Positions 2,558 to 64,000 of a DNA stretch of 64,000 bases are shown here, piece by piece; position 1 is the first letter of the stretch; each line of letters starts with the position of its first letter. The translations under genes and the position numbers were made by a program. The notes beneath the pieces are model-generated. The model did no database searches. It saw only the letters and a program-made list of their open reading frames with translations, and had not been told where the DNA came from. The stretch is taken from the NCBI GenBank assembly GCA_964348825.1, contig CAYGDX010000001.1, positions 175,463 through 239,462 on the forward strand, given 5' to 3'. This stretch comes from an uncultured Gammaproteobacteria bacterium. Lineage in GTDB: Bacteria > Patescibacteriota > Patescibacteriia > Veblenbacterales > UBA10138.

Positions 2558-3484
2558 GTGCCTCAATCAACTCGAGAAATTAAGCGACGATTACGCTCCA
2601 TAAAAAATACGCGCCAAGTAACGCGCGCCATGGAGATGGTTTCGGCCGCCAAAATGCGGAAATCGGTACAAGCGGTGGTAGCGAGTCGCGCTTATGCGAG
2701 TTATGCTTGGGCGCTTGTTTCTGAGTTGTCGCTCCGAGTGGATCAGCGTCATCATCCGTTACTCGCTAAACGTGATAAAGTAAAAAATATTGGATTACTG
2801 GTGGTAAGTTCTAATCGCGGGCTGTGTGGCGGATTTAATTACCAATTAGCACAAAAGGTGGAAAAATATTATCAAAGTTTAGGTGAAAACGTATCAGTTA
2901 AATTAATTTCATTTGGCGTCAAAGCTCGCGACATATTGCTTCGTCAAGGTAAGGTGCTGGCAGCTGATTTCAGCAAACCTGATTTATTAAATGATGAAAC
3001 AATTATTAAGCCAATAGCCAAATTGTTGCTCGAGGAGTATTTATCTGGTAATTATGATAAAGTTGTATTGGCTTATACTGATTTTATTTCAGCGTTATCA
3101 CAAAAACCAAAAATTAAACAACTACTGCCAATTGAAAAAGTAATTGATAATGATTTGGGTGGTGTTAAGAATGCGTCAGTCGATACTACACCCTACACCC
3201 TACACCCTCACCCCTCAAACTACGAATACAAATTTGAACCAACACCTGCCACAGTATTAAATGAATTGTTGCCACGACTTTTGGGACTTCAAATTTACCA
3301 AGCGACTCTTGAATCAACTGCTTCAGAACATTCGGCACGCATGCTCGCTATGCGCAATGCTTCATCGGCCGCTCGTGATATGTTGGATGACTTAACTTTA
3401 ACTTTCAATCAAGCTCGACAAGCATCTATCACCTCGGAGCTGGCAGAAATTATTGGTGGACGAACAGCGATTGAAGCGGTTTAG
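2558..3484 (+). CDS. atpG: ATP synthase F1 gamma subunit
   Basis: 308 aa. Conserved N-terminus (MPQSTREIKRRLRSIKNTRQVTRAMEMVSAAKMRK) and C-terminus (…RQASITSELAEIIGG). Contains an in-frame tandem heptamer insertion at 3185..3219. Confidence 0.9.
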   Translation: MPQSTREIKRRLRSIKNTRQVTRAMEMVSAAKMRKSVQAVVASRAYASYAWALVSELSLRVDQRHHPLLAKRDKVKNIGLLVVSSNRGLCGGFNYQLAQKVEKYYQSLGENVSVKLISFGVKARDILLRQGKVLAADFSKPDLLNDETIIKPIAKLLLEEYLSGNYDKVVLAYTDFISALSQKPKIKQLLPIEKVIDNDLGGVKNASVDTTPYTLHPHPSNYEYKFEPTPATVLNELLPRLLGLQIYQATLESTASEHSARMLAMRNASSAARDMLDDLTLTFNQARQASITSELAEIIGGRTAIEAV

Positions 3485-3540: not shown

Positions 3541-5023
<1,483 letters not shown>

Positions 5024-13465: not shown

Positions 13466-13719
13466 TACCCCACCTAACCCCGCCTCATCGGCGGACAAGC
13501 TCCCTATAATGTATTTTAGGAAGAAATTTTACTAAATTTGGCTATTAGTTAGCCATTTTTTAATATGTCTTTCCAACTTGTGGAATTATCTAAAAAATGT
13601 TAAACTAATAGTAGTTTTACAGTACTATTTTGGTTGTTTTTTATTTATATCTGGATTCCCGCTTTCGCGGGAATGACGGGTGTAAATGTTAACAGTTTTG
13701 AGTTTTAACTTTTTATATT

Positions 13720-15222: not shown

Positions 15223-15242
15223 TAAATTAAAAAATTTATTTT

Positions 15243-15403
15243 GTTACTTTTTATAAAGTAACACAAAATCTCCGCCTCGGTCTTCGGGTTTGAACAGTGC
15301 TCGTCAAACGAGCTGGCTCAAGCTATGCTAAGCGACCACAGACACGCTTGAGCCGGACGCTCGTTTGACTTCCGCTCTGTACAAACCCTACGACAGGGCG
15401 GCA
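15243..15403 (-). mobile_element. MITE-like repeat family 1, copy 1 (between pheS and pheT), inverted relative to the 37538 copy
   Basis: About 160 bp. The core is >80% identical to the copies at 37538, 54935 and 58508. It has ~30 bp imperfect terminal inverted repeats (cgccgccYtgtcgtagggtttgtacag … ctgttcaaacccgaagaccgaggcggcg) and a terminal palindromic hairpin (gttactttttataaagtaac). Confidence 0.65.
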
Positions 15404-15426
15404 CAACGACTAATTTAAATTACCTT

Positions 15427-17559: not shown

Positions 17560-17576
17560 GTTTAGTAAGAGTTTTT

Positions 17577-17665
17577 ACTAGAACATTAAATCACTAGATC
17601 ATAAAAACAAAAAATTCTTTATTAATAATGTTCTAATGTTCTAATGTTTTAGTGTTCTAGTGAAT
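17577..17665. repeat. Intergenic word repeat family A (tagaacat / cactagatcat), ~90 bp inverted-repeat element upstream of gyrB
   Basis: About 90% identical to 26627..26715 upstream of nusG. Diverged members lie at 838..905 (upstream of atpA), 5165..5250 (upstream of atpC) and 14105..14195 (upstream of pheS). Each is organised as ctagaacattaaa … tttaatgttctag inverted arms. Confidence 0.75.
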
Positions 17666-20371: not shown

Positions 20372-23300
20372 ATGGAACGTGAATCTCCACCCATCAATCC
20401 ACAATATGAAAAATACCGCGTGGCGCTCGAGCGGTATTTGGCGCAGGCCTCACCCGAAGCTAAGGCCGAGGCCAAACGTTTGATTGAAGAAGAGAGAAGA
20501 TTGGAGCGGGTTGAAATTTTGCAAAAATTGCAAGATGGTCTTTTAGTGCTTAAAAATATTTCGGAAAACCAAAGAACTGATCATCAAAAATGGGTAGTTG
20601 GTGCTGTAGAAGGCGCTTTAGGTAAAATTGGTGATGATGGTAAATACGAAATAAAGGCAGGGGAAAATAGTCAACGCGAAGGCGTACCAGTGGATGGATT
20701 AATTAAAGAGTTAGAAGATTTTTGGCATCAAGCGGGCGCCCGGGCGCGCGAACTAGAAAACGAAGTACGCAGGTTAAGACAAAAACATAGTGATGTTTTA
20801 GCCAATTGGGTACGTGAGGGTGCGACCGATATTACTTCAGAGCATCAAATCAAAATGGCTTGGCAAGAGGTGGCGAGTGGTAGTTCAGTTGAAATAAAAA
20901 ATCAAGTAGATGCTACTCGCAAAACTTGGGCTACGGCGGGCGGTATAGGAGATGATTATGATCCAGCGACTGGTGAATATAAATTACAAAGCGGTGAAGC
21001 AATGCGTCAGTTGGTGGAAAATAAATTAGTTGGTGAAGTTAGGCAAGCCAAGAATAAAACTGATGCTTTAGGTGGCACGCGAGATTTTTTGATTGGTAAA
21101 AGTAAGGGATATTTTGAAGCACATCCAGAAATGAAAGGTGATAAGCAACATTGGCGCACCGAATACGAAGCTAAGTTTATTTCTCGTGACTTCCGTTCTA
21201 CTGGTGCAGTACAAACTGATTATGATAAAGCTATGGTAGAAATGTCGGCCCGGCGTGAATTAGTGCTACCGAATTTGAAAGTTGAATTACCAGAAGTTGT
21301 GCCCGTGGTAGTTGAACCAACTCCGGCGTCAGTTGAGCCAATATCACTTCAACCGGAAAAGCCAGAAGCCAAACGAGCGTATCTTATTAATGTTTCTGAA
21401 GTAGTTAAGCAGTATGCTCACCGACAAGCTGAATTACGTTTGAATGAATTACAAAAAGCTGAGGTGAAGGGTTTTTTCAAAACAATTGGCAGTGGCTTTA
21501 AGAAAATGTGGCTTAATTTAGGAGAAGAAGGGTATCGCCGTAAATTTGAGAAGGAAATTTTAACAGAAATTACAAGCAATAAAAATTTATTAGCTGAAAT
21601 TGAAGCACGTTTGGGTAAAAGTAAAAGTGCCACTACTTTAGAAAGCAAGGGATTGAATGAAAAGGTTTTAAGTGATGTAATTGATCGGTATCAAAAAGAA
21701 GTAGCCGAGGCTGAAGAAAAAGGTGAAGTAGTGGTGGATGCGCGGGTGAATCAAGAAGCCACAAAGTTATTTGTAGAATACGCCCAAGGTGCAATTACTA
21801 CGCGCGAGGAATTTGATAAACAAGTAGAAGAAAAAATTCTGCCACTGCTTGCTGGTCGTAAATTTACACTTGATTCAAATTACGCTAAGGAAGCTGAAAA
21901 AAATAAAAAAGATAAGATTGAAATGTATGCTAATAATTATTTTGAATTAGCTAAGAATTATAAAACATACATTGATAAAAAATTAGCTGAATACCCACCA
22001 GATCAGCGCGGCAAATTAATTGAACACTTGAAAGGCGAATTAGGTTTGGATTTGCAACTCGGGTTTATGCGTCGCGATTTAGAGGAAACTAAACCGCAAG
22101 AAGTTTTGAAATGGTACGACAAACTAGTTGATTTTACACAAAGTATTCCAATCATTAATAAAATTGTGGCTAATCCACTAGCTTATGGCATACTCGGCGG
22201 AGTAGCTGGTACTTTTGTGGGGCGTGGTGTTAAACGTTTTGCTGTTGGCAAGGGATTAATCGGTATTGCTGGTATGGCGCCGTGGCTCGCGCCGATAATT
22301 TTAGGTATGGGTTTTGGTGGAGCATATCTTTCGGCCCGTCGTTCACGTAATTTACAATATGATCGCGGTATGGATTTGCGTCGTAGAGCACTAGGCGCAG
22401 AAAGTGGTGGCGAGCGGACTGACAAAATGCGTGAATTTAATTATGGAATTAAACGCGCCGATGAAATTGTTTCGGCCTTGCAAGCGGTGCGAGCTAAATC
22501 TGGCTTAACTGATGCCGATAAAGAAATTTTAGGAGAAGTAATCGCCCGTTTTAAAGTAGAAAAAGAAAGATCAGTTGATTTAATTGGGGCTAATATTGAG
22601 GAAGGGTCTAAACACAAAACTAGAATTAAGAGTGTGACAGATGTTAAGTATTCATTAAAACAATCTTTAGAAAAATTTGGTTTGAAAGAATCAGATATTC
22701 AATCTTTTGTTGATAAACATTATAAAATTTTTATTGATGATATAGATAATAAAGACAAGTTGTTTAATAAATTTAGACATTGGGAAATGGGTAAAGCTGG
22801 CGTGATTGGCGCGACAATGGGTTTGGCCGGAGGTGCAGCTGGACAATATTTATGGGAACAAGGACAAGAATTATTTGGATTTACGCCAAAAACTGAAAGT
22901 GCCATTACTCATTTGATGCACTATATGAAAGGTGAGGGTAGTACCGCTTATGCTGGTGCGATGCAAGAAATTCCAATTGCGGCCTTAGGTGAAGCGGCGC
23001 ATCACCCCACTATTAAAATTCCACAAGGTTGGAGTTTATCCTCAGCGGGGGAAAGCAATCATTACGATTTAATTAATGCTGATGGTAATAAAGTTAGCGA
23101 TATAATTTTGAATTCCGACGGCACTTTGGATCAAGGAAGTTTGGATGAATTATCGGCTTCTGGTTTTAAAGTGAGTGATCAAGTGGAAACTGTTAGAACT
23201 AGTGTGCCAGATGCCACAGTACCAGCGGGCAAGGTGAATCCACTTGAGGCGTTTAAAGATCAGTTGGGTACACACCCACGAACTGATTGGCATGATGAAT

Positions 23301-26284
23301 TGGGTACGCGTTATAGTAAATTCTTTAATAAGTTGATTGAGTTTGAAGGTAAACAGCAAATGTTATATTTGGAAAAAGGTGCCGATGGCACAGTTTATAT
23401 TAATGCTGATAAAATTGCCCAGAATTTAGTAAAGAATGTTAATGAAGCGTTTGCTAAATTTGGCACTAACCCTGATGGAAGTCACGATTCTAAGTTACTA
23501 CATCTTAAAGAACAGTTAACAATGTGGGCTAGAAGTGGGGAGTTGCATAAACATTTGCAAGCCGCGATTATTCCAACCGAAAGTGCAAATCGGCAGGGCT
23601 TAAGTATGTTGGTTGATGGTGCGAGCGGTAATCATAAAATCGCTTTGCCACCGGGAATTTCTCGCCTTTTTACTACGCCAGAAAGTTTAAAGTATTTACA
23701 TCACCCTTTGCGTTATATAGAGTTGCGTCTTAATGGTCATACTTTAGCTACCAGTGTTGGCGGCGATATGCAAGCTGTAGCGCCTACGCCGATTGAAAAA
23801 ATTATAGAAACTCCGGTTCATCACACTGAAATTATCCCCACCGCGCATGACTTCGACGCACCACCAGTGTTACCATTTTATCCGAGGAAGGCGTTGGAGA
23901 GAACTCCAGAAAATCCTATTATATTGCCATATTATTTATATGGCGAAACAATGACACCAGAAAAAGAAGAACAAATAAGAAAACAATTATCAGAAACATT
24001 AAGGAGTAATCCCGACGCAAATTTGGATCATTATAAAGAAATTGAGGAGTATATTGGCAAATGGAATAGTGATTACCGTCAGGAAATAGAAAAGTTTGTG
24101 AGAGAAGTTGGCCCAATGAATGAAAAATGTCGTGTATCTGTTTGTATACCTGTAGCTGGTCACCAAGAGGGTAATAGTATTTACAAAACACTGGAAAATT
24201 ATTTAAATCAAACAATTGAGAAAGGAAATTTTGAAATAGTGTTATTTGTTAATCATCCTGAAAATGATGTAAATGGTAATAAAATTAGGCCGGATAATAC
24301 GCTGGAAGAAATAGAGCGTTTTAAAAAAGATTACCCGGGATTAAATGTTGTGACTATGTATAAATCTTTACCCTTGGAAGAGGTAAAGATTGGTTACATC
24401 AGGAAATTACTTAATGACACTGTATTAATGAGACATCATCAAAGAGGTAAGAGTGTTGAAGATTTAATAATTATTAGTAATAATGCTGATAATAAAGGTG
24501 TGGCGCCTGAATATATTAAAAATTTTGTTAATAAGTTTGATGAAAATTCTAATATTGATTCATATCTTGGTCAAGTGGATTGGGATCCAGAGGTTTATAT
24601 TAAAAATCCATTAGCTCATGTAGGGACTAGACTATTTCAATATATTAATATTCAAAATAGAAGCAAGGGTAGACACATTGAATCATCGGGTTGTAATTTT
24701 GCTCTAAGATCGAGTGTATATGCGGCAGTAGGTGGTTATGACGGTGAGGCGACACTAGGTGAAGATAATGAATTAGGTGCCGCAATTAAATATGGAAGAA
24801 AAAATGCCAGGGTTCACAAAGGTGTTGAATATGCTGGGGCAAGAGTTTCCAGAATATATTCATCCGCTAGAAGGATAGAGTATTCCCTAAAAAATGGGCT
24901 TTCACCTATAGAACAATGGGATAATGGTTTTAGTGCCTTTGATGATGAGGTTAGAAAAGTTAAATGGAATCTTAAGGGGAAGGCAATTGATTATGAAGAT
25001 GTGGATCAGGTAAAGTCTTTAATTAATGAGTTAGAAAATATTATTAATAGGACCATTAATAGAATGTCTAGTTGGGGTTTAGTATCCGACAGTCTAGTTT
25101 TTAAAAAATCTTTAGGTTGGTTGGGTATTAAATACGAAATGGTTGGCGACAAAAGAATAAAGATAATTAATGCTGATCGTTTGATTAGAGATTTAAAGGT
25201 GTATCAGAGTGATGGTTTATTGATAAGAGATTTGAAATTAGGTAAATCAGATGCCAAAGAAAAGTTGTCTAAATTGAAGAGTGAACGTAATATTGTTGAA
25301 AGTTCTGCATTAGAAAACAGATTAGTTGATTTTTACAAAAACGATCAGTTGATTTTGCATACTAATAGTGTTATTCCAAATCTAGACAAAATTAAAATCT
25401 CAGCAAATAAAAAAAAGGTGGGAGATATTTTGGTGGCTGATGATTTATCTATTTATAATGGAGATGATTCAAAAGTGTTAGCCGGTTATAAAGAGGGGGA
25501 AGATAAGGTTGTTATTCTTAAAGAAGTTGGAAGTAACACAATGATTAATCGTTTAGAAGAACAGGGCTGGTCAGGATATGGGTTAGAAGTGTCTAGTTTT
25601 GATAGTTATTTAAAGAAGAAGGGATTTTCAAATAAAAATGTTCTTTTAGCTGATGATGAGTTTTATGAAGTTAGTAAAAGTGGTTCACCTAAATTAGCAA
25701 GAATATATGAGCCGGCACTATCTGATTTACAAGGATTTTTAAATCGCGGTGGTAAATTAAGTATCAAAGAATCATTGTCAGTAATGATAAGAAGTTGTGA
25801 TGGAATCAATGGATTACATAAAAATAATATAGCTAATATAGATTTAGCACCATTAAACATTTTGGTTTTTAAAGATGGTATTAAAATTACTGATCTTGAC
25901 GGCTCCAGTATTTCTTCGGACGGTAATAAATTTATTAGAAAATCATTGGGATTAAATAGATTTATTTGTGCTCCAGAATTGTTTGGTAAGAATAATACTT
26001 TTGATAAGACAGTTGATGTATATGCGGCTGGTGCAAATTTATATTATCTTTTAACTGGTAAATGGCCTTATGATATTGATGCAGAGACAACAGGAATGAG
26101 TCGTGAAGAGGTCATGGATAAATATAAACCACTTCATATGTCTGGAAATATTGATATACCCTCTAACATACCAGTTGAATTGGGGCGTGTAATTAAAAAG
26201 GCCATGAGTCCTAATCCCACAGACAGATATCAAACTATCGAGGAATTAAATAATGAATTATTAAATATATACGAAAGTATTTAA
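20372..26284 (+). CDS. Giant multidomain membrane protein: N-terminal coiled-coil region, TM helices, GT2-family glycosyltransferase domain and C-terminal Hanks-type protein-kinase-like domain
   Basis: 1970 aa, uninterrupted.
- aa ~1-560 are Glu/Lys-rich coiled coil.
- Hydrophobic helices lie at about aa 598-653 (IVANPLAYGILGGVAGTFVG…GLIGIAGMAPWLAPIILGMGFGGAYL) and at about aa 807-826.
- aa ~1230-1520 have GT-A fold features (CRVSVCIPVAGHQEGNSI…EIVLFVNHPEND…SSGCNFALRSSVYAAVGGYDGEATLGEDNELG).
- aa ~1740-1970 carry kinase subdomains VIb to IX (NIDLAPLNIL as the catalytic loop, KITDLDGSS as a DFG-like motif, FICAPE as the APE motif, DVYAAGANLYYLLTGKWPY as subdomain IX).
- A hairpin plus T-run terminator follows at about 26371..26396. 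Confidence 0.8.
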   Translation: MERESPPINPQYEKYRVALERYLAQASPEAKAEAKRLIEEERRLERVEILQKLQDGLLVLKNISENQRTDHQKWVVGAVEGALGKIGDDGKYEIKAGENSQREGVPVDGLIKELEDFWHQAGARARELENEVRRLRQKHSDVLANWVREGATDITSEHQIKMAWQEVASGSSVEIKNQVDATRKTWATAGGIGDDYDPATGEYKLQSGEAMRQLVENKLVGEVRQAKNKTDALGGTRDFLIGKSKGYFEAHPEMKGDKQHWRTEYEAKFISRDFRSTGAVQTDYDKAMVEMSARRELVLPNLKVELPEVVPVVVEPTPASVEPISLQPEKPEAKRAYLINVSEVVKQYAHRQAELRLNELQKAEVKGFFKTIGSGFKKMWLNLGEEGYRRKFEKEILTEITSNKNLLAEIEARLGKSKSATTLESKGLNEKVLSDVIDRYQKEVAEAEEKGEVVVDARVNQEATKLFVEYAQGAITTREEFDKQVEEKILPLLAGRKFTLDSNYAKEAEKNKKDKIEMYANNYFELAKNYKTYIDKKLAEYPPDQRGKLIEHLKGELGLDLQLGFMRRDLEETKPQEVLKWYDKLVDFTQSIPIINKIVANPLAYGILGGVAGTFVGRGVKRFAVGKGLIGIAGMAPWLAPIILGMGFGGAYLSARRSRNLQYDRGMDLRRRALGAESGGERTDKMREFNYGIKRADEIVSALQAVRAKSGLTDADKEILGEVIARFKVEKERSVDLIGANIEEGSKHKTRIKSVTDVKYSLKQSLEKFGLKESDIQSFVDKHYKIFIDDIDNKDKLFNKFRHWEMGKAGVIGATMGLAGGAAGQYLWEQGQELFGFTPKTESAITHLMHYMKGEGSTAYAGAMQEIPIAALGEAAHHPTIKIPQGWSLSSAGESNHYDLINADGNKVSDIILNSDGTLDQGSLDELSASGFKVSDQVETVRTSVPDATVPAGKVNPLEAFKDQLGTHPRTDWHDELGTRYSKFFNKLIEFEGKQQMLYLEKGADGTVYINADKIAQNLVKNVNEAFAKFGTNPDGSHDSKLLHLKEQLTMWARSGELHKHLQAAIIPTESANRQGLSMLVDGASGNHKIALPPGISRLFTTPESLKYLHHPLRYIELRLNGHTLATSVGGDMQAVAPTPIEKIIETPVHHTEIIPTAHDFDAPPVLPFYPRKALERTPENPIILPYYLYGETMTPEKEEQIRKQLSETLRSNPDANLDHYKEIEEYIGKWNSDYRQEIEKFVREVGPMNEKCRVSVCIPVAGHQEGNSIYKTLENYLNQTIEKGNFEIVLFVNHPENDVNGNKIRPDNTLEEIERFKKDYPGLNVVTMYKSLPLEEVKIGYIRKLLNDTVLMRHHQRGKSVEDLIIISNNADNKGVAPEYIKNFVNKFDENSNIDSYLGQVDWDPEVYIKNPLAHVGTRLFQYINIQNRSKGRHIESSGCNFALRSSVYAAVGGYDGEATLGEDNELGAAIKYGRKNARVHKGVEYAGARVSRIYSSARRIEYSLKNGLSPIEQWDNGFSAFDDEVRKVKWNLKGKAIDYEDVDQVKSLINELENIINRTINRMSSWGLVSDSLVFKKSLGWLGIKYEMVGDKRIKIINADRLIRDLKVYQSDGLLIRDLKLGKSDAKEKLSKLKSERNIVESSALENRLVDFYKNDQLILHTNSVIPNLDKIKISANKKKVGDILVADDLSIYNGDDSKVLAGYKEGEDKVVILKEVGSNTMINRLEEQGWSGYGLEVSSFDSYLKKKGFSNKNVLLADDEFYEVSKSGSPKLARIYEPALSDLQGFLNRGGKLSIKESLSVMIRSCDGINGLHKNNIANIDLAPLNILVFKDGIKITDLDGSSISSDGNKFIRKSLGLNRFICAPELFGKNNTFDKTVDVYAAGANLYYLLTGKWPYDIDAETTGMSREEVMDKYKPLHMSGNIDIPSNIPVELGRVIKKAMSPNPTDRYQTIEELNNELLNIYESI

Positions 26285-26429: not shown

Positions 26430-26618
26430 ATGACAAACTTTTTAACCACTTACTTACGTGGGGCGTGGGAAGAGATGAAAAAAGTGGCTTGGCCCACCAA
26501 GCGTGAAATTACTCAACACACTATGTTGGTGATTGGTATTTCGGTGGTAGTGGCTTTGTTTTTAGGCGCGCTCGACTATATTTTTAACTTTGGGCTGGAA
26601 CAGTTGTTGTATAAGTAA
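26430..26618 (+). CDS. secE: Preprotein translocase subunit SecE
   Basis: 62 aa with a single TM helix, directly upstream of nusG. N-terminus MTNFLTTYLRGAWEEMKKVAWPTKRE is SecE-like. Confidence 0.8.
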   Translation: MTNFLTTYLRGAWEEMKKVAWPTKREITQHTMLVIGISVVVALFLGALDYIFNFGLEQLLYK

Positions 26619-26626
26619 TTAATATC

Positions 26627-26715
26627 ACTGGAACATTAGATCACTAGATCATAAGAACAAAAAATTCTTTATTAATAATGTTCTAATGTTTAAATGTTCT
26701 AGTGTTCTAATGAAT
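26627..26715. repeat. Intergenic word repeat family A copy upstream of nusG
   Basis: See 17577..17665. Confidence 0.75.
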
Positions 26716-26744
26716 AAGATTTAGAATTTAGGATTTAAACAACT

Positions 26745-28920: not shown

Positions 28921-28950
28921 GATAGGCGTCATTCCCGCGTAGGCGGGAAT
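28921..28950 (+). repeat. Short palindromic unit (gtcattcccgcgtaggcgggaatctagaa) just downstream of rplA
   Basis: One of about 10 copies. Others lie at 13651..13680 (inverted), 54889..54922, 56503..56531, 57344..57375, 58213..58278 (with an internal insertion), 62143..62172, 63643..63672 (inverted) and two inside 6490..6572. The stem is ATTCCCGC/GCGGGAAT with a variable 4-5 nt loop and compensatory changes (cccac/gtggg). Confidence 0.8.
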
Positions 28951-28954
28951 CTAG

Positions 28955-29085
28955 AAACTAAAATTTCAAATGACAAATGTCAAATTTCAAATCAAATCCA
29001 AAATTATAATGTTAAAATTTTTAATCATTTAGTCATTTGACATTGATTTGTTATTTGGATTTTGACATTTGAAATTAAATACTTC
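28955..29085. repeat. Intergenic word repeat family D (atttcaaatgtcaaat / tttgacatttgaaat) upstream of dcd
   Basis: Built from ttgacatttgaaat words in both orientations. Related copies lie at 28120..28140, 62225..62285 and 63560..63600. Confidence 0.7.
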
Positions 29086-36768: not shown

Positions 36769-37437
36769 ATGAAAAGGTGGTGTAATGAAATGAAATGTTA
36801 TATATATGAAAATAAAGAATTAAGAAATTATATTTGTAAATGTGATGGCACTTCTAATATTTTATTGTATTTAGTTGTAAATGCCAAAATAGTGAGTGTT
36901 TGTCGAAACTGTGCGGTGGGCAATAATTACTATTGCGATAAACACGAATGTGTGACGCATGACTTAGACGATGGGAAAATTTGCCCACAGTGTGTATCTA
37001 ATTTAGCGGAACGTGAATACAATCAAGTAATAATTCGTCGCGTTTATCGGTTAATGAAAAGAATTCTTTCAGTTGATCAATTTGAATCTTTATCTAGTTG
37101 GGTGCAACTTGCTTGTGGAATTGAGCCACGTTCTACATCTTGGGCTATTTGGTGGATTTTTCAAGCTAAAGTACTACGTAGTGGACTTGAATTGCAGATA
37201 GTAATAGATAAATTTAAAATCAATCGTTCACTTTTATATCTTATTCCATTTAATGATAATATTTCCCCACAAGATTTATTGGAGTTAAAAGCTTTTATTT
37301 TTGGAAGAGCTTTGCATGATGAACCGATATCGCTAACTGAAGCAAAATGGCGTTTGACAATATCGCAGTTGAAACGAAATAAAATTACAATAGCTGAAAT
37401 TGCGCATGAATTTTCAAGCGCTAAAATAACAGATTAA
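36769..37437 (+). CDS. Cys-rich hypothetical protein (putative zinc-binding N-terminus)
   Basis: 222 aa. The N-terminal 80 aa contain about 12 Cys in CxC / CxxC arrangements (…YICKCDG…CRNCAVGNNYYCDKHECVTHDLDDGKICPQCV…). The block is conspicuously AT-rich, bounded by a terminator (37440..37477) and a MITE copy. Confidence 0.45.
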   Translation: MKRWCNEMKCYIYENKELRNYICKCDGTSNILLYLVVNAKIVSVCRNCAVGNNYYCDKHECVTHDLDDGKICPQCVSNLAEREYNQVIIRRVYRLMKRILSVDQFESLSSWVQLACGIEPRSTSWAIWWIFQAKVLRSGLELQIVIDKFKINRSLLYLIPFNDNISPQDLLELKAFIFGRALHDEPISLTEAKWRLTISQLKRNKITIAEIAHEFSSAKITD

Positions 37438-37537
37438 TACCCAGTTTTTTGCGAGGCAAAACTGGGTTTATTTTTATTTTGTCATTTCCATGTCATTCGA
37501 CATCAAGCTCATAACCTAGAGGAAAACGGGGAACCGT

Positions 37538-37698
37538 GCCGCCCTGTCGTAGGGTTTGTACAGAGCGCAAGGCAGACGAACGTCCGACTCGCCCGTGTTT
37601 GTGGTCGCTTGGCATAGGGCGAGTCAGTTCGTCTGACGAGCACTGTTCAAACCTGGAGACCGAGGCGGCGATTTTGTGTTACTTTATAAAAAGTAACA
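37538..37698 (+). mobile_element. MITE-like repeat family 1, copy 2 (between the Cys-rich ORF and miaA)
   Basis: Same element. It generates the spurious ORF 37536..37781, whose translation MPPCRRVCTERKA… recurs in the 58508 copy. Confidence 0.65.
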
Positions 37699-37806
37699 AA
37701 ATAAAAAATAATCTTAATTCCCACCATAGCGGGGCAAGTTGGATTCTCGTTTCTCTCCTTCGTTATAAAGTTACGGAGTGACAAGTTGTGAATACGGCAG
37801 TGCAGT

Positions 37807-38700
37807 TCACTTTAAGAAGTTATTAGCGTATTTTTGTGCTTTGCTGGCATTATCACACCAATTAACATTTGACATTTTTTTAAACCAAGTCATTTGTCTT
37901 TTGGCATAATGCCAACTAGCTATACTTAATTCATTAATCATTTCATCTTTAGTTAATTTGCCTTGCAGATATTTAGCAATAAAACGATATTCCAAACCAA
38001 AATTTTCAAGTCGTCTCCAAGACAATCCATTGCGATGTAAGCCGGCTACTTCTTTAATCATACCTTGGTGCAGGCGCTTTAAGATTCGTTTTTTAATAAG
38101 CTGTTTAAGTTTATTATCGTTGGGTTTTAAACCGATGATTAAAATGTTGGCCGCGAGTGGATTAGTTTTTACTTCCGGTACTTTACCCAGTTTGTGAATA
38201 ATTTCTAAAGCGCGAATTAATCGGCGTTTGTTTTCTTTTTGAATTGTAGTAGCACGTTTGGGATCAAGTTTTTTTAATTTATTAAATAATTGTTCGGCTG
38301 TGAGTTTTTCTAAAGCACGTCGCAATTTTAAATTTGGTTTGACCGACGGATAGCTTGTGCCACTAAGCACAGCTTGCACGTAAAAACCAGTACCACCACA
38401 AAGAATTGGCAATTTCTTTTTCTGCCAAATTTTACTAAGTGCGATGCTGGCTAATTTTTGATATTGGGTTACGGTAAATGTTTTTTTAGGCGAAGCAACG
38501 TCAAGCAAATAATGTGGCACGTTTTTCATTTCTCGTTTAGTAATTTTTCCACTGCCAATATCAAGGCCTTTATAAACTTGCCTTGAATCAGCGGAAATTA
38601 CTTCGCCTTGGTATTTTTGAGCAAGTTTAACCGCTAGCGCACTTTTCCCGCTTCCCGTGGGGCCAATGATAACTATTAATGGTGGATTGACAAAATTCAT
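37807..38700 (-). CDS. miaA: tRNA dimethylallyltransferase
   Basis: 297 aa. P-loop (IVIIGPTGSGKSALAVKLAQ), ISADSRQVYKGLDIGSGK. Confidence 0.92.
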   Translation of the reverse strand: MNFVNPPLIVIIGPTGSGKSALAVKLAQKYQGEVISADSRQVYKGLDIGSGKITKREMKNVPHYLLDVASPKKTFTVTQYQKLASIALSKIWQKKKLPILCGGTGFYVQAVLSGTSYPSVKPNLKLRRALEKLTAEQLFNKLKKLDPKRATTIQKENKRRLIRALEIIHKLGKVPEVKTNPLAANILIIGLKPNDNKLKQLIKKRILKRLHQGMIKEVAGLHRNGLSWRRLENFGLEYRFIAKYLQGKLTKDEMINELSIASWHYAKRQMTWFKKMSNVNWCDNASKAQKYANNFLK

Positions 38701-42478: not shown

Positions 42479-42594
42479 CCCGCCTGCCGAAGCTATTTAA
42501 CTTAGTTACGGCAAGGTGATTATTAAGCTTAAGTTAATTATTGAAAGTTATAAAATTAAGTTGCGGCTAGCGGCGGGCAGGTAGAAACTAGAAT
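42479..42594 (+). mobile_element. MITE-like repeat family 2, standalone copy
   Basis: About 115 bp, AT-rich interior, GC-rich imperfectly inverted termini (cccgcctgccgaagct … gctagcggcgggcaggtag). A second copy is nested at 60205..60312. Confidence 0.5.
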
Positions 42595-53564: not shown

Positions 53565-53620
53565 AATAATCTAGATTTTAACTTATAATCAGAGTTAATA
53601 TCAAATTAGTGCCGCCCTTG

Positions 53621-53813
53621 TCTCCGGGTTTGTACAGAGCGCCTGCCTACCGGTAGGCAGGCAAGGCAAATGAGCGTTCGGTCAGGCCGTGCTGTGGTCG
53701 CTGTGCATAGGCCGAGCCAGCTCGTTTGACGAGCACTGTTCAAACCCGAAGACCGACCTGCCTACCGGCAGGCAGGGGCGGCGACTCTTGCACCACTTCT
53801 CTAGAGAAGTGGT
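53621..53813 (+). mobile_element. MITE-like repeat family 1, copy 3 (prmC-prfA spacer), subfamily with a ...cttctctagagaagtggt terminal hairpin and two cctgcctaccggtaggcagg palindromes
   Basis: Terminal inverted repeats and core shared with the other copies. It carries the 20-bp palindrome cctgcctaccggtaggcagg at about 53648 and 53760. That palindrome also occurs alone at about 56640. Confidence 0.6.
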
Positions 53814-53827
53814 AAAATAAATTAAAA

Positions 53828-54892
53828 TTAATGATTCTCTTTTTTTAGCTCTTCAATCACAAGCTCTAAACCACCTTCCATAATATTCGGTAAATTGTGG
53901 AAGTTTTGATTTATTCGATGATCAGTTAGGCGGTCTTGCGGGAAGTTGTAAGTGCGGATTTTTTCAGAGCGCTCACCACTGCCAATTTGAGAGCGGCGTG
54001 AGGCGTCGCGTGCACTATGTAATTGCTCTTGCTTGAGCGCGAGTAATCGTGAACGTAGAACAATCATAGCTTTTTCTTTATTTTGTTTTTGGGAACGTTC
54101 GTCTTGACATTGTACTGTTAAACCAGTTGGCAAGTGTACAATACGAATGGCCGAGTAAGTAGTATTAACTGATTGTCCGCCGTGTCCTGAAGCAGTGTTG
54201 GCTTCAATTTTTAAATCTTCTGGTTTAATTTCCATATCTATTTCATCGGCTTCGGGGAGTACTGCCACCGTCACAGTTGAAGTGTGTACTCGACCATTTT
54301 TTTCAGTATCAGGCACACGTTGTACGCGGTGCACGCCGCTTTCGTATTTTAAATCAGAGTATACGCGGCGTCCGGTTATTTCCAAAGTAATATCTTTAAA
54401 ACCGCCGACATCATTACGGCTGGAATCAATAATTTGCACTTGCCATTTTTTACTTTCAGCGTACCGTGTATACATACGATACAAATCAGCCGCGAAAAGC
54501 GCGGCTTCGTCGCCACCAGTGCCACCGCGTATTTCCATAATGATATTTTTACCGTCCATTGGATCAGATGGTTCAAGGAGCTCCCTTAACTCGGCGTTTA
54601 TTTTGGCTAAATGAGTGGTGGTTTTTATATTTTCTTCAACAATCATATTTTTCATTTCAGCTTCAGTTTCGTTTTTAGCAGATGATTCCAAATGTTCAAG
54701 CTCTTGCATTAAATTTTTTCTTTTTTCTGCCAAATCCAAAATCTCCCGTACCGAGGTGTACTCGCGGTTTAGTTGGGTCAGCAAGGGTTGGTTGGTAAGC
54801 GTATCGGCTTGTGCAAGTTTGGCTTCTAGTTCAGCTTGCCTTTCCTCTAGGGTGATAAGTTTTTGGTCGATATTGGTCATAATCGTTGTCAT
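53828..54892 (-). CDS. prfA: Peptide chain release factor 1
   Basis: 354 aa. GGQ motif ([11 protein letters not shown]) plus RF1-type domains. Confidence 0.95.
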
Positions 54893-54922
54893 TCCCGCGT
54901 AGGCGGGAATCCAGAAAATTAA
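54889..54922 (+). repeat. Short palindromic unit immediately upstream of the prfA start
   Basis: ttgtcattcccgcgtaggcgggaatccagaaaat. Confidence 0.8.
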
Positions 54923-54934
54923 ATTTATTTGTTA

Positions 54935-55101
54935 TTTTGTCACTTCTTTAATAGAAGTAACCAAGAATCGCCGCCTCGGTCTTCGGGTTTGAACAGTGCT
55001 CGTCAAACGAGCTGGTTCGGGCTATGCACAACTACCACAGACACGCCCGAACCGGACGCTCATTTGCCTTGCGCTCTGTACAAACCCTACGACAGGGCGG
55101 C
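54935..55101 (-). mobile_element. MITE-like repeat family 1, copy 4 (upstream of prfA)
   Basis: Inverted orientation. Preceded by an acttct-ttaat-agaagt hairpin. Generates the spurious ORF 54929..55111. Confidence 0.6.
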
Positions 55102-55300
55102 ACTGTTTTAGGAATTGGGATTTTTAATAATTTGGATTTATTTAGGATTTAGGGTTTTAGATTTAGGATTTTTAGAAACAAAACTCTTTCTAAACCCTTG
55201 TCCTTACTAATTAACTCTACCATATTTATAGTGATAAAAGCGAAACCAAATACAATACTCCCGCTCGCAATTAAAAAAAGGAGCGGGAGTAGAATAGTGC

Positions 55301-55561
55301 TTAATTGTCAGCTTTAACAACTTCAGCTTTGGACTTTATTTTCTTGGCTGTGGTTACCGAGGTTTTTGTAGCGCGCTTTTTGAAGCGATCCACGCGACCA
55401 GCGGCGTCAAGCACTTTTTGTTTGCCTGTGAAAAATGGGTGACAAGCAGCACAAATTTCCACATGGAGTTCCTTGACGGTAGAGCCAGTGGTAAAGCTAT
55501 TACCGCAGGCACAAGTGACTACGGCATCGGAATAATATTTTGGATGGGTATCTTTTTTCAT
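55301..55561 (-). CDS. rpmE: 50S ribosomal protein L31 (Zn-binding type)
   Basis: 86 aa. [10 protein letters not shown]…CACGNSF…[10 protein letters not shown]. Confidence 0.9.
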
Positions 55562-56502: not shown

Positions 56503-56531
56503 TCATTCCCGCGGAGGCGGGAATCCAGAAA
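56503..56531 (+). repeat. Short palindromic unit downstream of rpsB
   Basis: tgtcattcccgcggaggcgggaatccagaa. Confidence 0.8.
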
Positions 56532-56710
56532 CATAAATCCTAAATCCTAATATCTAAACTCTAAATAAATCCCAATAACTAAAATCCAAAAAAGTTTTAA
56601 ACATTTGAATTTTAGATTTATTTCGGATTTCGCCTGCCTGCCGGTAGGCAGGGATTTAGTGCTTCGGATTTAAACACCATTGATTTAAAATTATAAATTT
56701 AAAATTTAAT

Positions 56711-57325: not shown

Positions 57326-57478
57326 GAGTCTAGAGTAAGAGTATTGTGTCATTCCCGCGTAGGTGGGAAGCTATTAATTTAAAAATTAAAAATCAAAATG
57401 GAAAATGACAATGTAAAATGAAAAATTTTAAATTTTAATTTGTCATTTTTATTTTTGATATTTACATTTTGATTTTTT

Positions 57479-58278: not shown

Positions 58279-58507
58279 AAGCGATTTTTGTTATTAAATT
58301 ATTTTCTTAAAAGCGTTCATTTTGAACCGCTTTGTTTTTTATGTTATTATTAAACCATAATATAAAATAAATTGCCCTTTTAGTTAAAATCGGTCCGGAA
58401 GACCAAACCCTGCCTTAAGCATATTTGCCAATCTTACAACGTCGTAGTGGATTAGTTGATTGAGCATTTTTGTTACCTCGCAGGGTTTTTTATTTAACCA
58501 AAAGTTT

Positions 58508-58669
58508 TGCCGCCCTGTCGTAGGGTTTGTACAGAGCGCAAGGCAAATGAGCGTCCGGCTTGGGCGTGTCTGTGGTCGCTTCGCATAGCCCAAGCCAGCT
58601 CGTTTGACGAGCACTGTTCAAATCCGAAGACCGAGGCGGCGATTTTATGTTACTTTATAAAAAGTAACA
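58508..58669 (+). mobile_element. MITE-like repeat family 1, copy 5 (downstream of pyrH)
   Basis: About 90% identical to copy 2, including the gttactttataaaaagtaac terminal hairpin. Generates the spurious ORFs 58507..58734 and 58384..58614. Confidence 0.65.
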
Positions 58670-58834
58670 AAAGAAGAGTTATCCACACCCTTGACATAAA
58701 AAACAGCCGGAGTATATTATGTATTATCCACTAAAGTTAGGAAAAAGAACGACCTATCTGAAACATTTACAAATAATCGTAATGAGTGGAATAATCAACA
58801 ATCGTTCTTTAACAAATAATATAGGAGATTTGTT

Positions 58835-59698
58835 ATGAAGAAATTCATAGCCCTTATTCTTTGTTTATTCGTCGCGGTGGTATTTGCAAAGCCACCAACA
58901 ACCACAATCGGTATTGTTGTTGCGTCTGAGCCGGCGATAGTTGTTAGTAACGTCAATTCACAACCAAGCGAGAAATGTTTGGATCAAGCAGTGAATTGCG
59001 GCGTTAGTAATTCAAGCGTTATTCAGGATAATTTAAATGTATCAAACACAGCCGGAGGTCTGACGCAAAATAGCATCAAGCTCGGTTTAGTTGATAATTT
59101 AAAAATTTCCCATTATCCTACCCAAAACAATACAGGAGGTATGGCGATTTTCGCCCCGATTGTAGGTTTTGGTGGTAATAATTTTAATGAAGTTATTCAA
59201 TTGCAAACGTCGGTTAACATAGCCGAAGGTATATTGCGCAATGGTGTTGGTGTGGTTTCCACAAAAACAAACGCACCCATGATGGTTATAAATAGCTTAA
59301 AAATCAGCGGACTAATGAACGACGTAACCTATGCATCCAATTACAACAACTCGTTTGACGGTGGGTATGTTGCTACTGCGGTCGGAGTGAAAATAAGAAG
59401 TCACACATCCACTATGGCCAGCTCTTGCAATTATTTAACTGCAGCGGCGGTGACCAATTCGACGAAAATGGCGGTCACCCAACAAGATAAAGCGGATAAC
59501 ACAACAACGGCGACCATTTCCGGGTCCACAGTGATGAATTCAACAACCAACGAACAAATGAGCATGGAAGTTTACAATTCAATCACCGGCAATAACTCGT
59601 ATTATTCCAATCCAATCGTAATCAACAGTCGTAGCGGTAAATTTGAAACGTCACTTTCGTACCTCAATTCAACCGCAGGAACAACAAATCCGTGCTAA
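58835..59698 (+). CDS. Secreted hypothetical protein, Ser/Thr/Asn-rich
   Basis: 287 aa. N-terminal signal peptide (MKKFIALILCLFVAVVFA). The mature part is about 40% S/T/N/G with no recognisable domain. Sits in the MITE-bracketed island. Confidence 0.5.
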   Translation: MKKFIALILCLFVAVVFAKPPTTTIGIVVASEPAIVVSNVNSQPSEKCLDQAVNCGVSNSSVIQDNLNVSNTAGGLTQNSIKLGLVDNLKISHYPTQNNTGGMAIFAPIVGFGGNNFNEVIQLQTSVNIAEGILRNGVGVVSTKTNAPMMVINSLKISGLMNDVTYASNYNNSFDGGYVATAVGVKIRSHTSTMASSCNYLTAAAVTNSTKMAVTQQDKADNTTTATISGSTVMNSTTNEQMSMEVYNSITGNNSYYSNPIVINSRSGKFETSLSYLNSTAGTTNPC

Positions 59699-60066: not shown

Positions 60067-60105
60067 AGCGGGTGTTGTTCACAAAGAACCACCCGTCTTT
60101 TTTTA
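60067..60105 (+). terminator. Intrinsic terminator-like hairpin upstream of MITE copy 6
   Basis: gcgggtg…cacccgt followed by T7. Confidence 0.45.
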
Positions 60106-60124
60106 CTTAAAATAATTCAAACAA

Positions 60125-60390
60125 CTGCCGCCTTGTCGTAGGGTTTGTACAGAGCGCAAGTCAAACGAGCGTCCGGCTTGGACGTGTCTGTGGTCGCTCG
60201 GCACCCGCCTGCCGAAGCTGTTTCCCCAAGTTAACGTACGATGATTAGTATACTTTAGTTCATTATTAGAAATACTGAAACCAAGTTGGGCTAGCGGCGG
60301 GCAGGTAGTCCAAGCCAGCTCATTTGACGAGCACTGTTCAAACCCTATACCCGCGCGGCGACTCTTGCACAACTTCTCTAGAGAAGTGGT
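60125..60390 (+). mobile_element. MITE-like repeat family 1, copy 6, carrying a nested family-2 element
   Basis: The family-1 left arm (60125..60204) and right arm (60313..60390) are interrupted by about 108 bp. The interrupting piece runs cccgcctgccgaagct … gctagcggcgggcaggtag, the same termini as the standalone element at 42479..42594. Confidence 0.6.
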
Positions 60391-60796
60391 AAAAATACTA
60401 TTTTGACCAATTTTTACTTTAGTGTTAAGTTTAAATCAAATTGCACCTAAATAAAATGAGCTTAAATTGATATCAACTCCCACCTCAAAAACATCTCTAA
60501 AAATGTTACGATGGATTTTATCGTACACATTAATTGCTATGGTAATGGATTAGTACGTGCTTTCTCCTTAGGAGATTGTTGACTCGGCCTGCCTATATCA
60601 CAATATAGTGAAAATTATCACGGCAATTTGTCAATTTTTGTTCAAACGAACCCAGCTACTAAGAGTTTAATTATATTTGTTAGCAAGATTAGAATTAGTT
60701 AGAGTAAGATACTTGGGGGAGGTGAAGCCCGGTACTGTGCTATCAAGCTCTAGTACTGGGCGAAGCCAAAATGCTCTTTCAAATTAAATTTATTTT

Positions 60797-62142: not shown

Positions 62143-62172
62143 TCATTCCCGCGAAAGTGGGAATCTAGAAAT
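62143..62172 (+). repeat. Short palindromic unit downstream of gap
   Basis: ttgtcattcccgcgaaagtgggaatctagaaa. Confidence 0.8.
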
Positions 62173-62294
62173 AAATCGTTTAAATCCTAAATCCGAATAT
62201 CGAAATCCGAAATAAATCACAAATTCTAAAATTTAGTCATTTGGATTTGATTTGACATTTGGATTTTGAAATTTGAAATTATACAACTCAGGTT

Positions 62295-63629: not shown

Positions 63630-64000
<371 letters not shown>

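Follow-up and report, generated by a model that had tools for sequence, protein, structure and literature searches.

The 64-kb stretch of DNA analysed here (the window) carries six copies of an interspersed hairpin repeat, represented by the index copy at 37534-37704. We favour, with moderate confidence, the reading that these copies belong to a lineage-specific family of non-autonomous, hairpin-dependent mobile DNA elements, which resembles the REPINs (hairpin-forming doublets of repetitive extragenic palindromic, or REP, sequences) rather than miniature inverted-repeat transposable elements (MITEs) with terminal inverted repeats (TIRs) and target-site duplications (TSDs). The unit consists of a ~134-nt GC-rich interrupted rod, a linker (GAYTYTKG), a short AT-rich 3' hairpin and an A-rich tail. 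The family is previously undescribed and belongs among the known bacterial interspersed palindromic repeats. Its propagation would need one particular strand in folded, single-stranded form, which a trans-encoded, structure-specific enzyme would recognise via the conserved boxes and loops; the most likely kind of enzyme would be a single-strand HUH/Y1 transposase of the IS200 or REP-associated tyrosine transposase (RAYT) type. The element would enter AT-rich intergenic DNA without duplicating the target, and the very stable RNA expected from a co-transcribed rod probably has a bearing on the sites and orientations in which copies are tolerated.

Copies, fold and covariation

The copy census combined a repeat search, a multiple alignment and a covariance model (R1), and a filter-free R1 search of the entire 64 kb found exactly six copies and no seventh copy or relic. 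The initial annotation had listed the same six copies, at or within a few nucleotides of the positions found here; its boundaries stand for five of them, but the third, which it began at 53621, was entered ~11 nt too far in, the TGCCGCC end of the element being at 53610. The copies are as follows.

37534-37704, + strand: index copy, R1 score 202.9 bits, between a hypothetical gene (36769-37437, +) and miaA (37807-38700, -)
37537-37670, + strand: rod of the index copy, followed by the linker, the 3' AT hairpin (37678-37697) and the A-rich tail (to 37704)
15236-15406, - strand: pheS-pheT copy, R1 score 205 bits, antisense to both genes
53607-53820, + strand: prmC/prfA copy, antisense to both genes, with two nested 20-nt palindromes (53642-53661 and 53757-53776)
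54932-55105, - strand: prfA/rpmE copy, between rpmE (55301-55561, -) and prfA (53828-54892, -), sense orientation, 3' hairpin subtype 2
58505-58675, + strand: pyrH/hypothetical copy, sense orientation
60123-60396, + strand: hypothetical/gap copy, upstream of gap, 3' hairpin subtype 3

All six lie between genes, as had been proposed, and they occur in both orientations. The four copies free of insertions measure 171-174 nt and match one another at 91% per alignment column, while the two longer ones (53607 and 60123) owe their extra length to insertions, which in copy 60123 include a nested ~102-nt element (60204-60305) in the apical loop. Copy 15236 fits into a 204-bp pheS-pheT spacer at 14 and 21 bp from the two genes, copy 58505 lies directly 3' of a hairpin and T-run that is read as a terminator and kept in a related contig (L004), and copy 60123 begins 19 bp past a GC hairpin and T-run read as an intrinsic terminator. 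The flanks are unrelated to one another across 19 copies, namely the six in the window and 13 from the metagenome-assembled genome (MAG) H52-bin160_1, and the copies are therefore not a segmental duplication; the earlier description of a dispersed, short, non-coding multi-copy element holds. Open reading frames (ORFs) within the copies, such as 54929-55111 and 60103-60372, are repeat artefacts, as previously annotated, because 20-nt and ~102-nt insertions, as well as paired substitutions in the stems, set the copies apart.

The element has a GC content of 50-60%, compared with 37% for the genome, and the predicted fold of the rod reaches -79 kcal/mol (z = -7.8 against shuffles). This calculation agrees with the suggestion that the self-complementary interior would let transcripts fold into a long rod. 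Sequence, and not just structure, is conserved at four sites of the unit: the inverted boxes, the basal internal loops, the ~24-nt apical region and the 3' hairpin module. The landmarks within the index copy are listed below.

37552-37567, + strand: left conserved box GGGTTTGTACAGAGCG, invariant in the 19 close copies, with a conserved T·T mismatch against the right box
37637-37654, + strand: right conserved box CGAGCACTGTTCAAACC, which pairs with the left box
37594-37617, + strand: apical region CGTGTYTGTGGTCGCTNNGCATAG, whose short helix closes a ~13-nt loop and contains a bulged A and two conserved G·U pairs
37678-37697, + strand: 3' AT-rich hairpin of subtype 1, GTTACTTTATAAAAAGTAAC, which forms an extended hairpin with the flanking ATTTT/AAAAT

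The AT-rich hairpin at one end is present in every copy, but in three subtypes (GTTACTTTATAAAAAGTAAC, GGTTACTTCTATTAAAGAAGTGAC and CCACTTCTCTAGAGAAGTGG) rather than the two first recognised. The subtypes are linked by compensatory changes (TTAC/GTAA, CCAC/GTGG, CTAC/GTAG and TCAC/GTGA), and the hairpin is followed by AAAATAA.

Covariation was assessed on the 19 copies. Compensatory change keeps the rod paired: canonical pairs fill 98.2% of 741 pair cells, double-sided changes affect 18 of the 39 pairs (55 cells), the alignment exceeds all 500 column shuffles on each of five measures, and pairing falls to 24-43% when partners are slid by 1-3 columns. Variation is concentrated in two inner helices (5 and 6), where 14 of 16 pairs co-vary, and one 9-bp helix exists in ~10 compensated versions, including GGCTTGGGC/GCCCAAGCC, GGCTCAAGC/GCTTGAGCC, GACTCGCCC/GGGCGAGTC, GGTTCGGGC/GCCCGAACC and GGTCAGGCC/GGCCTGACC. 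The outermost helix co-varies too (GCCGCC/GGCGGC versus GCGGCC/GGCCGC). In helix 3, the pairing of the two boxes, 8 of 11 pairs never vary, and co-variation is seen solely in a distant copy (L020, below). Imperfect inverted-repeat ends are indeed present, and TGCCGCCCTGTCGTAGGGTTTGTACAG and CTGTTCAAACCCGAAGACCGAGGCGGCG do pair; they are, however, the outer part of a hairpin that co-varies over its whole length, and not the ~30-bp TIRs as which they had been annotated.

The conserved wobble pairs are oriented. On the sense strand the terminal U·G is kept in 13 of 13 cases, as is the apical GU pair 63-84, and the apical UG pair 66-81 is kept in 11 of 13; on the opposite strand these three would be A·C mismatches. 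In the other stems G·U outnumbers A·C by 11 to 5, and the sense strand of the rod is the more stable one in 18 of 20 copies, by 4.7 kcal/mol on average. These observations indicate that the fold belongs to one strand, either as RNA or as single-stranded DNA.

The most distant member of the family extends this picture. A single copy (101 bits) lies in sense orientation in the rpmE-prfA spacer of L020 (GCA_039739015.1), whose RF-1 is 70% identical, and folds to the same architecture (-80.9 kcal/mol). Its stems have mostly been re-written in a compensatory manner, boxes included (GGCTTAG/CTAAGCC in place of GGGTTTG/CAAACCC), and the basal loops, the apical region and the 3' hairpin are still recognisable; it is therefore the structure that persists, and not the stem sequence. 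The spacer and orientation are those of window copy 54932, and closer relatives have no copy there. Given the few shared spacers, this match of sites could be a coincidence, with an estimated p of roughly 0.1-0.2. The L020 rod is followed by a hairpin, GTCAT...CCCCCGCCGAGGCGGGGG...ATGAC (3166-3207), that is analogous to the small GC hairpin GTCATTCCCGCGNNGGCGGGAATC of the window.

Gain, loss and exchange among related genomes

Judging from related sequences, the host is a bacterium of the Patescibacteria (candidate phyla radiation). The nearest RF-1 proteins outside its small cluster are 65-70% identical and come from Kerfeld-, Veblen-, Komeili- and Uhrbacteria-type MAGs. A cyanobacterial origin had been suspected from heptamer repeats and was ruled out, as the HIP1 motif GCGATCGC occurs zero times in the window and the matches are Patescibacteria MAGs. 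The relatives compared were MAG H52-bin160_1 (JBBTZY01), whose contig name, Hain_H52_02um, hints at Hainich groundwater, the contigs L004/L019 and L018 (two other assemblies) and L020. L004/L019 and L018 are syntenic with the window from 48 to 64 kb, and are mostly 85-94% identical to it in the prmC-to-pyrH core and 78-87% identical in the outer blocks; for the related genomes, identity over the syntenic region is put at ~92-94%.

The prfA-prmC copy of the window has an orthologue in L004/L019 and L018. Copy 54932, in contrast, has no counterpart in that spacer of L004/L018; copy 58505 is missing from the orthologous spacer of L004/L018, and copy 60123 from the corresponding region of L018. 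Copies therefore come and go, being present in some close relatives and absent from others. The 264-bp element-bearing spacer between prfA and prmC is itself derived, since the two genes overlap by 4 nt in distant relatives. The orthologous prfA-prmC copies of the window and L004 share their flanks, the outer rod, an unusual 5' end and both nested palindromes, and yet over the inner ~70 nt they fall into different subfamilies, and the right arm of the window copy is a hybrid. New combinations of rod variant and 3' hairpin subtype are likewise found among copies, as between L011 and L013a. This shuffling, seen in sequence alignments, shows that modules are exchanged between copies and is read as gene conversion.

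Two smaller palindromic elements occur both within rods and on their own.

56633-56652, no strand assigned: solo 20-nt palindrome CCTGCCTGCCGGTAGGCAGG, the same palindrome that is nested in rods
L003 3184-3203, L008 6497-6516 and L013 4475-4494: further occurrences of the 20-nt palindrome
42479-42581, + strand: solo ~103-nt hairpin element CCCGCCTGCCGAAGC...GCTAGCGGCGGGCAGG, the same element that is nested at 60204-60305

The 20-nt GC palindrome (CCTGCCTRCCGGYAGGCAGG, perfect or near-perfect) behaves as a tiny insertion. The solo palindrome at 56633-56652 is precisely missing from a near-identical repeat in L004 (GGATTTC|GGATTTAG), and no target duplication accompanies the 20-nt palindrome save an ambiguous single G. 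It has entered two rod loops in different copies, and a divergent 19-nt relative (CCTGCCTCGGCAAGGCGGG, in L002) occupies a third; copy 53607 has CCTGCCTACCGGTAGGCAGG and a near-identical palindrome, one in each of two loops. The ~102-103-nt element has GC-rich ends and an AT-rich interior, its two copies are 84% identical per alignment column, and in copy 60123 it sits between the GCA and the TAG of the apical loop. A CCTGCC...GGCAGG motif is common to the ends of this element and the 20-nt palindrome, and nested insertions were found solely in rod loops.

The family was found just in this small clade, namely H52-bin160_1, one related assembly (L018) and the one distant copy in L020. A pattern scan gave 12 matches, all in 1 of 185,579 species-representative genomes (H52-bin160_1). 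Four further pattern matches in JGI metagenome contigs were dismissed as chance by the covariance model, and there were none in viral contigs by pattern scan or in plasmids and phages by BLAST. Rfam 15 returned nothing at the gathering score for the window and L020, and a search at E <= 10 over one copy gave chance-level matches alone (E >= 1.5). In the literature searched we found no account of such repeats in Patescibacteria, and none that ties REPINs or RAYTs to this group.

Known systems and competing explanations

REPINs are REP doublets that form hairpins and are mobilised by RAYT tyrosine transposases (Bertels and Rainey, 2011; PMC3116915), and they have been described as two invariant inverted boxes around a hairpin-forming spacer in which compensatory changes are common (PMC3116915). 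The rods resemble them in being extragenic, ~100-170 bp long and non-coding, in having two conserved inverted regions of ~16 nt with a spacer constrained only to form a hairpin, in the lack of any reported TSD, in copies that insert next to or into each other, and in populations that differ between close relatives. They differ in that the boxes are not REP palindromes (GGGTTTGTACAGAGCG has just the 6-nt TGTACA, the right box has none, and there is no 'clover' fold), in the asymmetry given to the unit by its 3' AT-rich hairpin and A-rich tail, and in the setting, a small-genome Patescibacteria lineage with no RAYT in the sequence covered. Palindrome-associated elements derived from IS200/IS605, and other HUH transposon ends, share with the rods the one-strand hairpins, the strand-asymmetric fold and the absence of TIR-dependent cleavage and of a TSD. 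In such elements a sub-terminal hairpin stands at either end and insertion takes place 3' of a fixed tetra- or pentanucleotide, in contrast to the combination of a rod with one small 3' hairpin seen here, where the 5' flanks have no such fixed motif and A-rich sequence is common. The nested 20-nt palindrome, as opposed to the rod, recalls the very small dispersed repeats (SDR) of heterocyst-forming cyanobacteria, reportedly described by Elhai and colleagues in 2008: it too is a tiny, precise palindromic insertion, often inside repeats, that leaves the host hairpin intact, although sequence and phylum differ.

Several observations weigh against a REPIN-like mobile element. The conserved boxes are not themselves REP-like palindromes, and the covariation and conserved wobbles are equally expected of a functional RNA. 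To account for an asymmetric, GC-rich element of this kind one has to invoke either a recent spread, GC-biased conversion or selection. The family is known from just three or four related genomes, so that the sampling of its copy-number dynamics is thin. Neither the 64-kb window nor the surroundings of the 13 MAG copies, whose 18 neighbours are all housekeeping or unknown genes, yielded a transposase of any kind; Y1_Tnp in particular had no match in 48 of the 53 main window ORFs or in those 18 neighbours. No clean empty site for a rod was recovered in L004/L018, where the orthologous spacers are too rearranged, and the element ends, the target and the lack of a TSD consequently rest on inspection of flanks.

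Another explanation, which we regard as possible but distinctly less probable, is that the copies are functional structured RNAs present in multiple copies (trans-acting small RNAs, or cis-acting terminators, insulators, RNase III sites or mRNA stabilisers) whose spread is secondary or selected by the host. It accommodates the strong covariation with sequence-conserved loops, the three G·U pairs conserved on the sense strand alone, the excess of G·U over A·C, the better folding of the sense strand, and an architecture kept in a distant relative, where the rod has the rpmE-prfA spacer and the orientation of one window copy. In subtype 1 the GC-rich closing stem is followed by AUUUUGUGUU; the sequences after this stem read AUUUUGUG in subtype 1 and ACUCUUGC in subtype 3, and a consensus terminator scan misses the rods, whose loops are too long. 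Sense copies mostly stand 15-60 nt past a GC hairpin and T-run, read as intrinsic terminators, whereas the orientation is antisense for copies in tight operons (pheS-pheT, prfA-prmC and two in the MAG); the pattern is weak and the numbers small, and it would be in keeping with a disruptive effect of transcribed sense rods. Against an RNA function, there is no shared promoter, since the 5' flanks are unrelated, and a canonical U-tract is absent after the 3' hairpin, with a poor post-rod tail in subtype 3. Orientation relative to genes follows no rule (3 sense versus 4 antisense copies in tandem contexts, the others being convergent or divergent), the neighbours are unrelated housekeeping genes, and no gene class is associated with the rods. 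Close relatives do without a copy at orthologous sites, there is no Rfam match, and G·T wobbles and strand asymmetry are also expected where single-stranded DNA is recognised. Two candidate RNA signals were rejected: one antisense promoter-like match inside copy 58505 (58670-58642) is not conserved across hairpin subtypes, and a hammerhead-like CUGANGA appears in one copy as CTGACGAG, where the consensus is TTGACGAG and Rfam is silent. A bolder proposal, to which we give rather little credence, is an expressed structured RNA with specifically acting loops, either scaffold- or guide-like for a nucleic-acid enzyme or a mobile terminator or RNase III module; if true, a streamlined, ~1-Mb symbiont-type genome would maintain and spread a GC-rich RNA device together with nested smaller hairpins.

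Bacterial MITEs such as Correia/NEMIS, ERIC, RUP, BOX and Nezha have TIRs, a defined TSD (TA for Correia, for example) and kin among insertion sequence (IS) families. They are short, non-autonomous, intergenic and multi-copy with inverted-repeat ends, and their rod transcripts can affect termination, processing and stability of neighbouring mRNAs. The initial annotation had called the repeat MITE-like, which stands as far as its inverted ends, short length, multiple copies and polymorphism between relatives are concerned; the asymmetry of a unit made of a rod plus a 3' hairpin and the absence of a visible TSD do not fit, and no related autonomous IS or transposase was found in the sequence covered. 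A classical MITE, that is, a deletion derivative of an IS moved by a DDE transposase through TIRs with a TSD, would explain the inverted-repeat ends of a non-coding, intergenic element that varies between relatives, and we nevertheless consider it unlikely. No flanking direct repeat is visible on inspection of 45-nt flanks of the 19 copies, whose exact ends are not fixed by empty sites; the entire interior pairs and co-varies, which a TIR-recognising enzyme does not require; the outermost pairs vary with compensation while the sub-terminal boxes are invariant; and the extra 3' hairpin stands outside the inverted repeat. Searches of the window, of ~190 kb of window and related loci, and of plasmids and phages yielded no IS with the same ends and a transposase. 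Conserved mismatches and bulges in a co-varying hairpin are reminiscent of folded recombination sites, and the conserved T·T of helix 3 and the bulged A, together with the insertion of other small palindromes into rods, might suggest that the copies are sites for site-specific recombination or protein binding (attC-like sites, IS110/IS1111-type targets or nucleoid-protein sites) that do not themselves move. This is very unlikely, as the copies are single and dispersed, without arrays or an adjacent integrase, relatives differ by gain and loss of the rods themselves, and the inserts nested in them are tiny, non-coding palindromes. Segmental duplication or an assembly artefact, for which nothing speaks but the repeated sequence itself, has practically no chance of being right given the dissimilar flanks, the two orientations and the recurrence of the same family in independent assemblies from other samples.

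Genomic setting and significance

The window is a segment of a 37% GC chromosome, dense with housekeeping genes: the ATP synthase operon, pheS/pheT, gyrB, nusG-rplK-rplA, thyA/folA, gatB, miaA, thrS, dnaE, prmC/prfA, rpmE, rpsB-tsf-pyrH and gap-pgk. A tRNA/tmRNA scan of the window gave zero genes. The ORF at 20372-26284 encodes 1970 aa, in which NCBIfam, the sole resource applied to it, matches only Ser/Thr protein kinases over the C-terminal residues ~1785-1966, and the other ~1780 residues have no NCBIfam match. Just 3' of copy 58505, a near-consensus promoter at 58691-58720 (TTGACA, 16-18 nt, TATATT/TATTAT; 11/12) is conserved in L004; it stands ~115 nt upstream of the ORF at 58835 and may serve a long leader or a small RNA.

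Other repeats share the spacers with the rods. AT-rich long palindromes occupy many of them (3545-3662, 17574-17664, 26596-26742, 28963-29075, 56541-56672, 57380-57475, 62179-62281 and others), with a left arm of tandem 7-8-mers (AAATCCG/AAATCCT, TAGAACAT, CAAAAGT...) and a complementary right arm; they form several repeat families, with z from -4.5 to -6.2, and may be bidirectional terminators or protein-binding arrays. L020 has a similar AT-rich block in its prfA-prmC spacer (4432-4545). A small GC hairpin, GTCATTCCCGCGNNGGCGGGAATC, occurs at least seven times (13655-13674, 28931-28950, 54891-54910, 56505-56524, 57351-57368, 62145-62164 and 63646-63665), usually directly 5' of an AT-rich palindrome. 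A GC-richer dispersed repeat of ~120 nt (...GGGGGAGGTGAAGCCCGGTACTGTGCTATCAAGCTCTAGTACTGGGCGAAGCC...) lies at 60644-60765 in the window and at L003 2387-2508, L004 4634-4755 and L018 9300-9421, that is, at different loci in the window and its relatives, and has no Rfam match.

The rod family alone takes up 1.8% of this 64-kb stretch of core housekeeping genes. In practical terms, such repeats generate spurious ORFs and break short-read assemblies. Independent short-read assemblies end in or beside them (L001, L024 and L023), L001 terminating in the 3' hairpin of copy 37534 (window 37683), and pgk sits alone on a 1.4-kb contig in an independent short-read assembly of the host. Counts of rods in MAGs from this clade are therefore likely to be too low. 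The host belongs to the Patescibacteria, whose genomes are considered small and streamlined, and yet its genome bears a load of GC-rich hairpin repeats, and most of the other spacers hold long palindromes as well. With ~10 compensated versions of a 9-bp helix, shuffled modules and 20-nt palindromes that land in hairpin loops, the family offers a compact natural data set on how hairpin repeats spread and persist without an obvious transposase.

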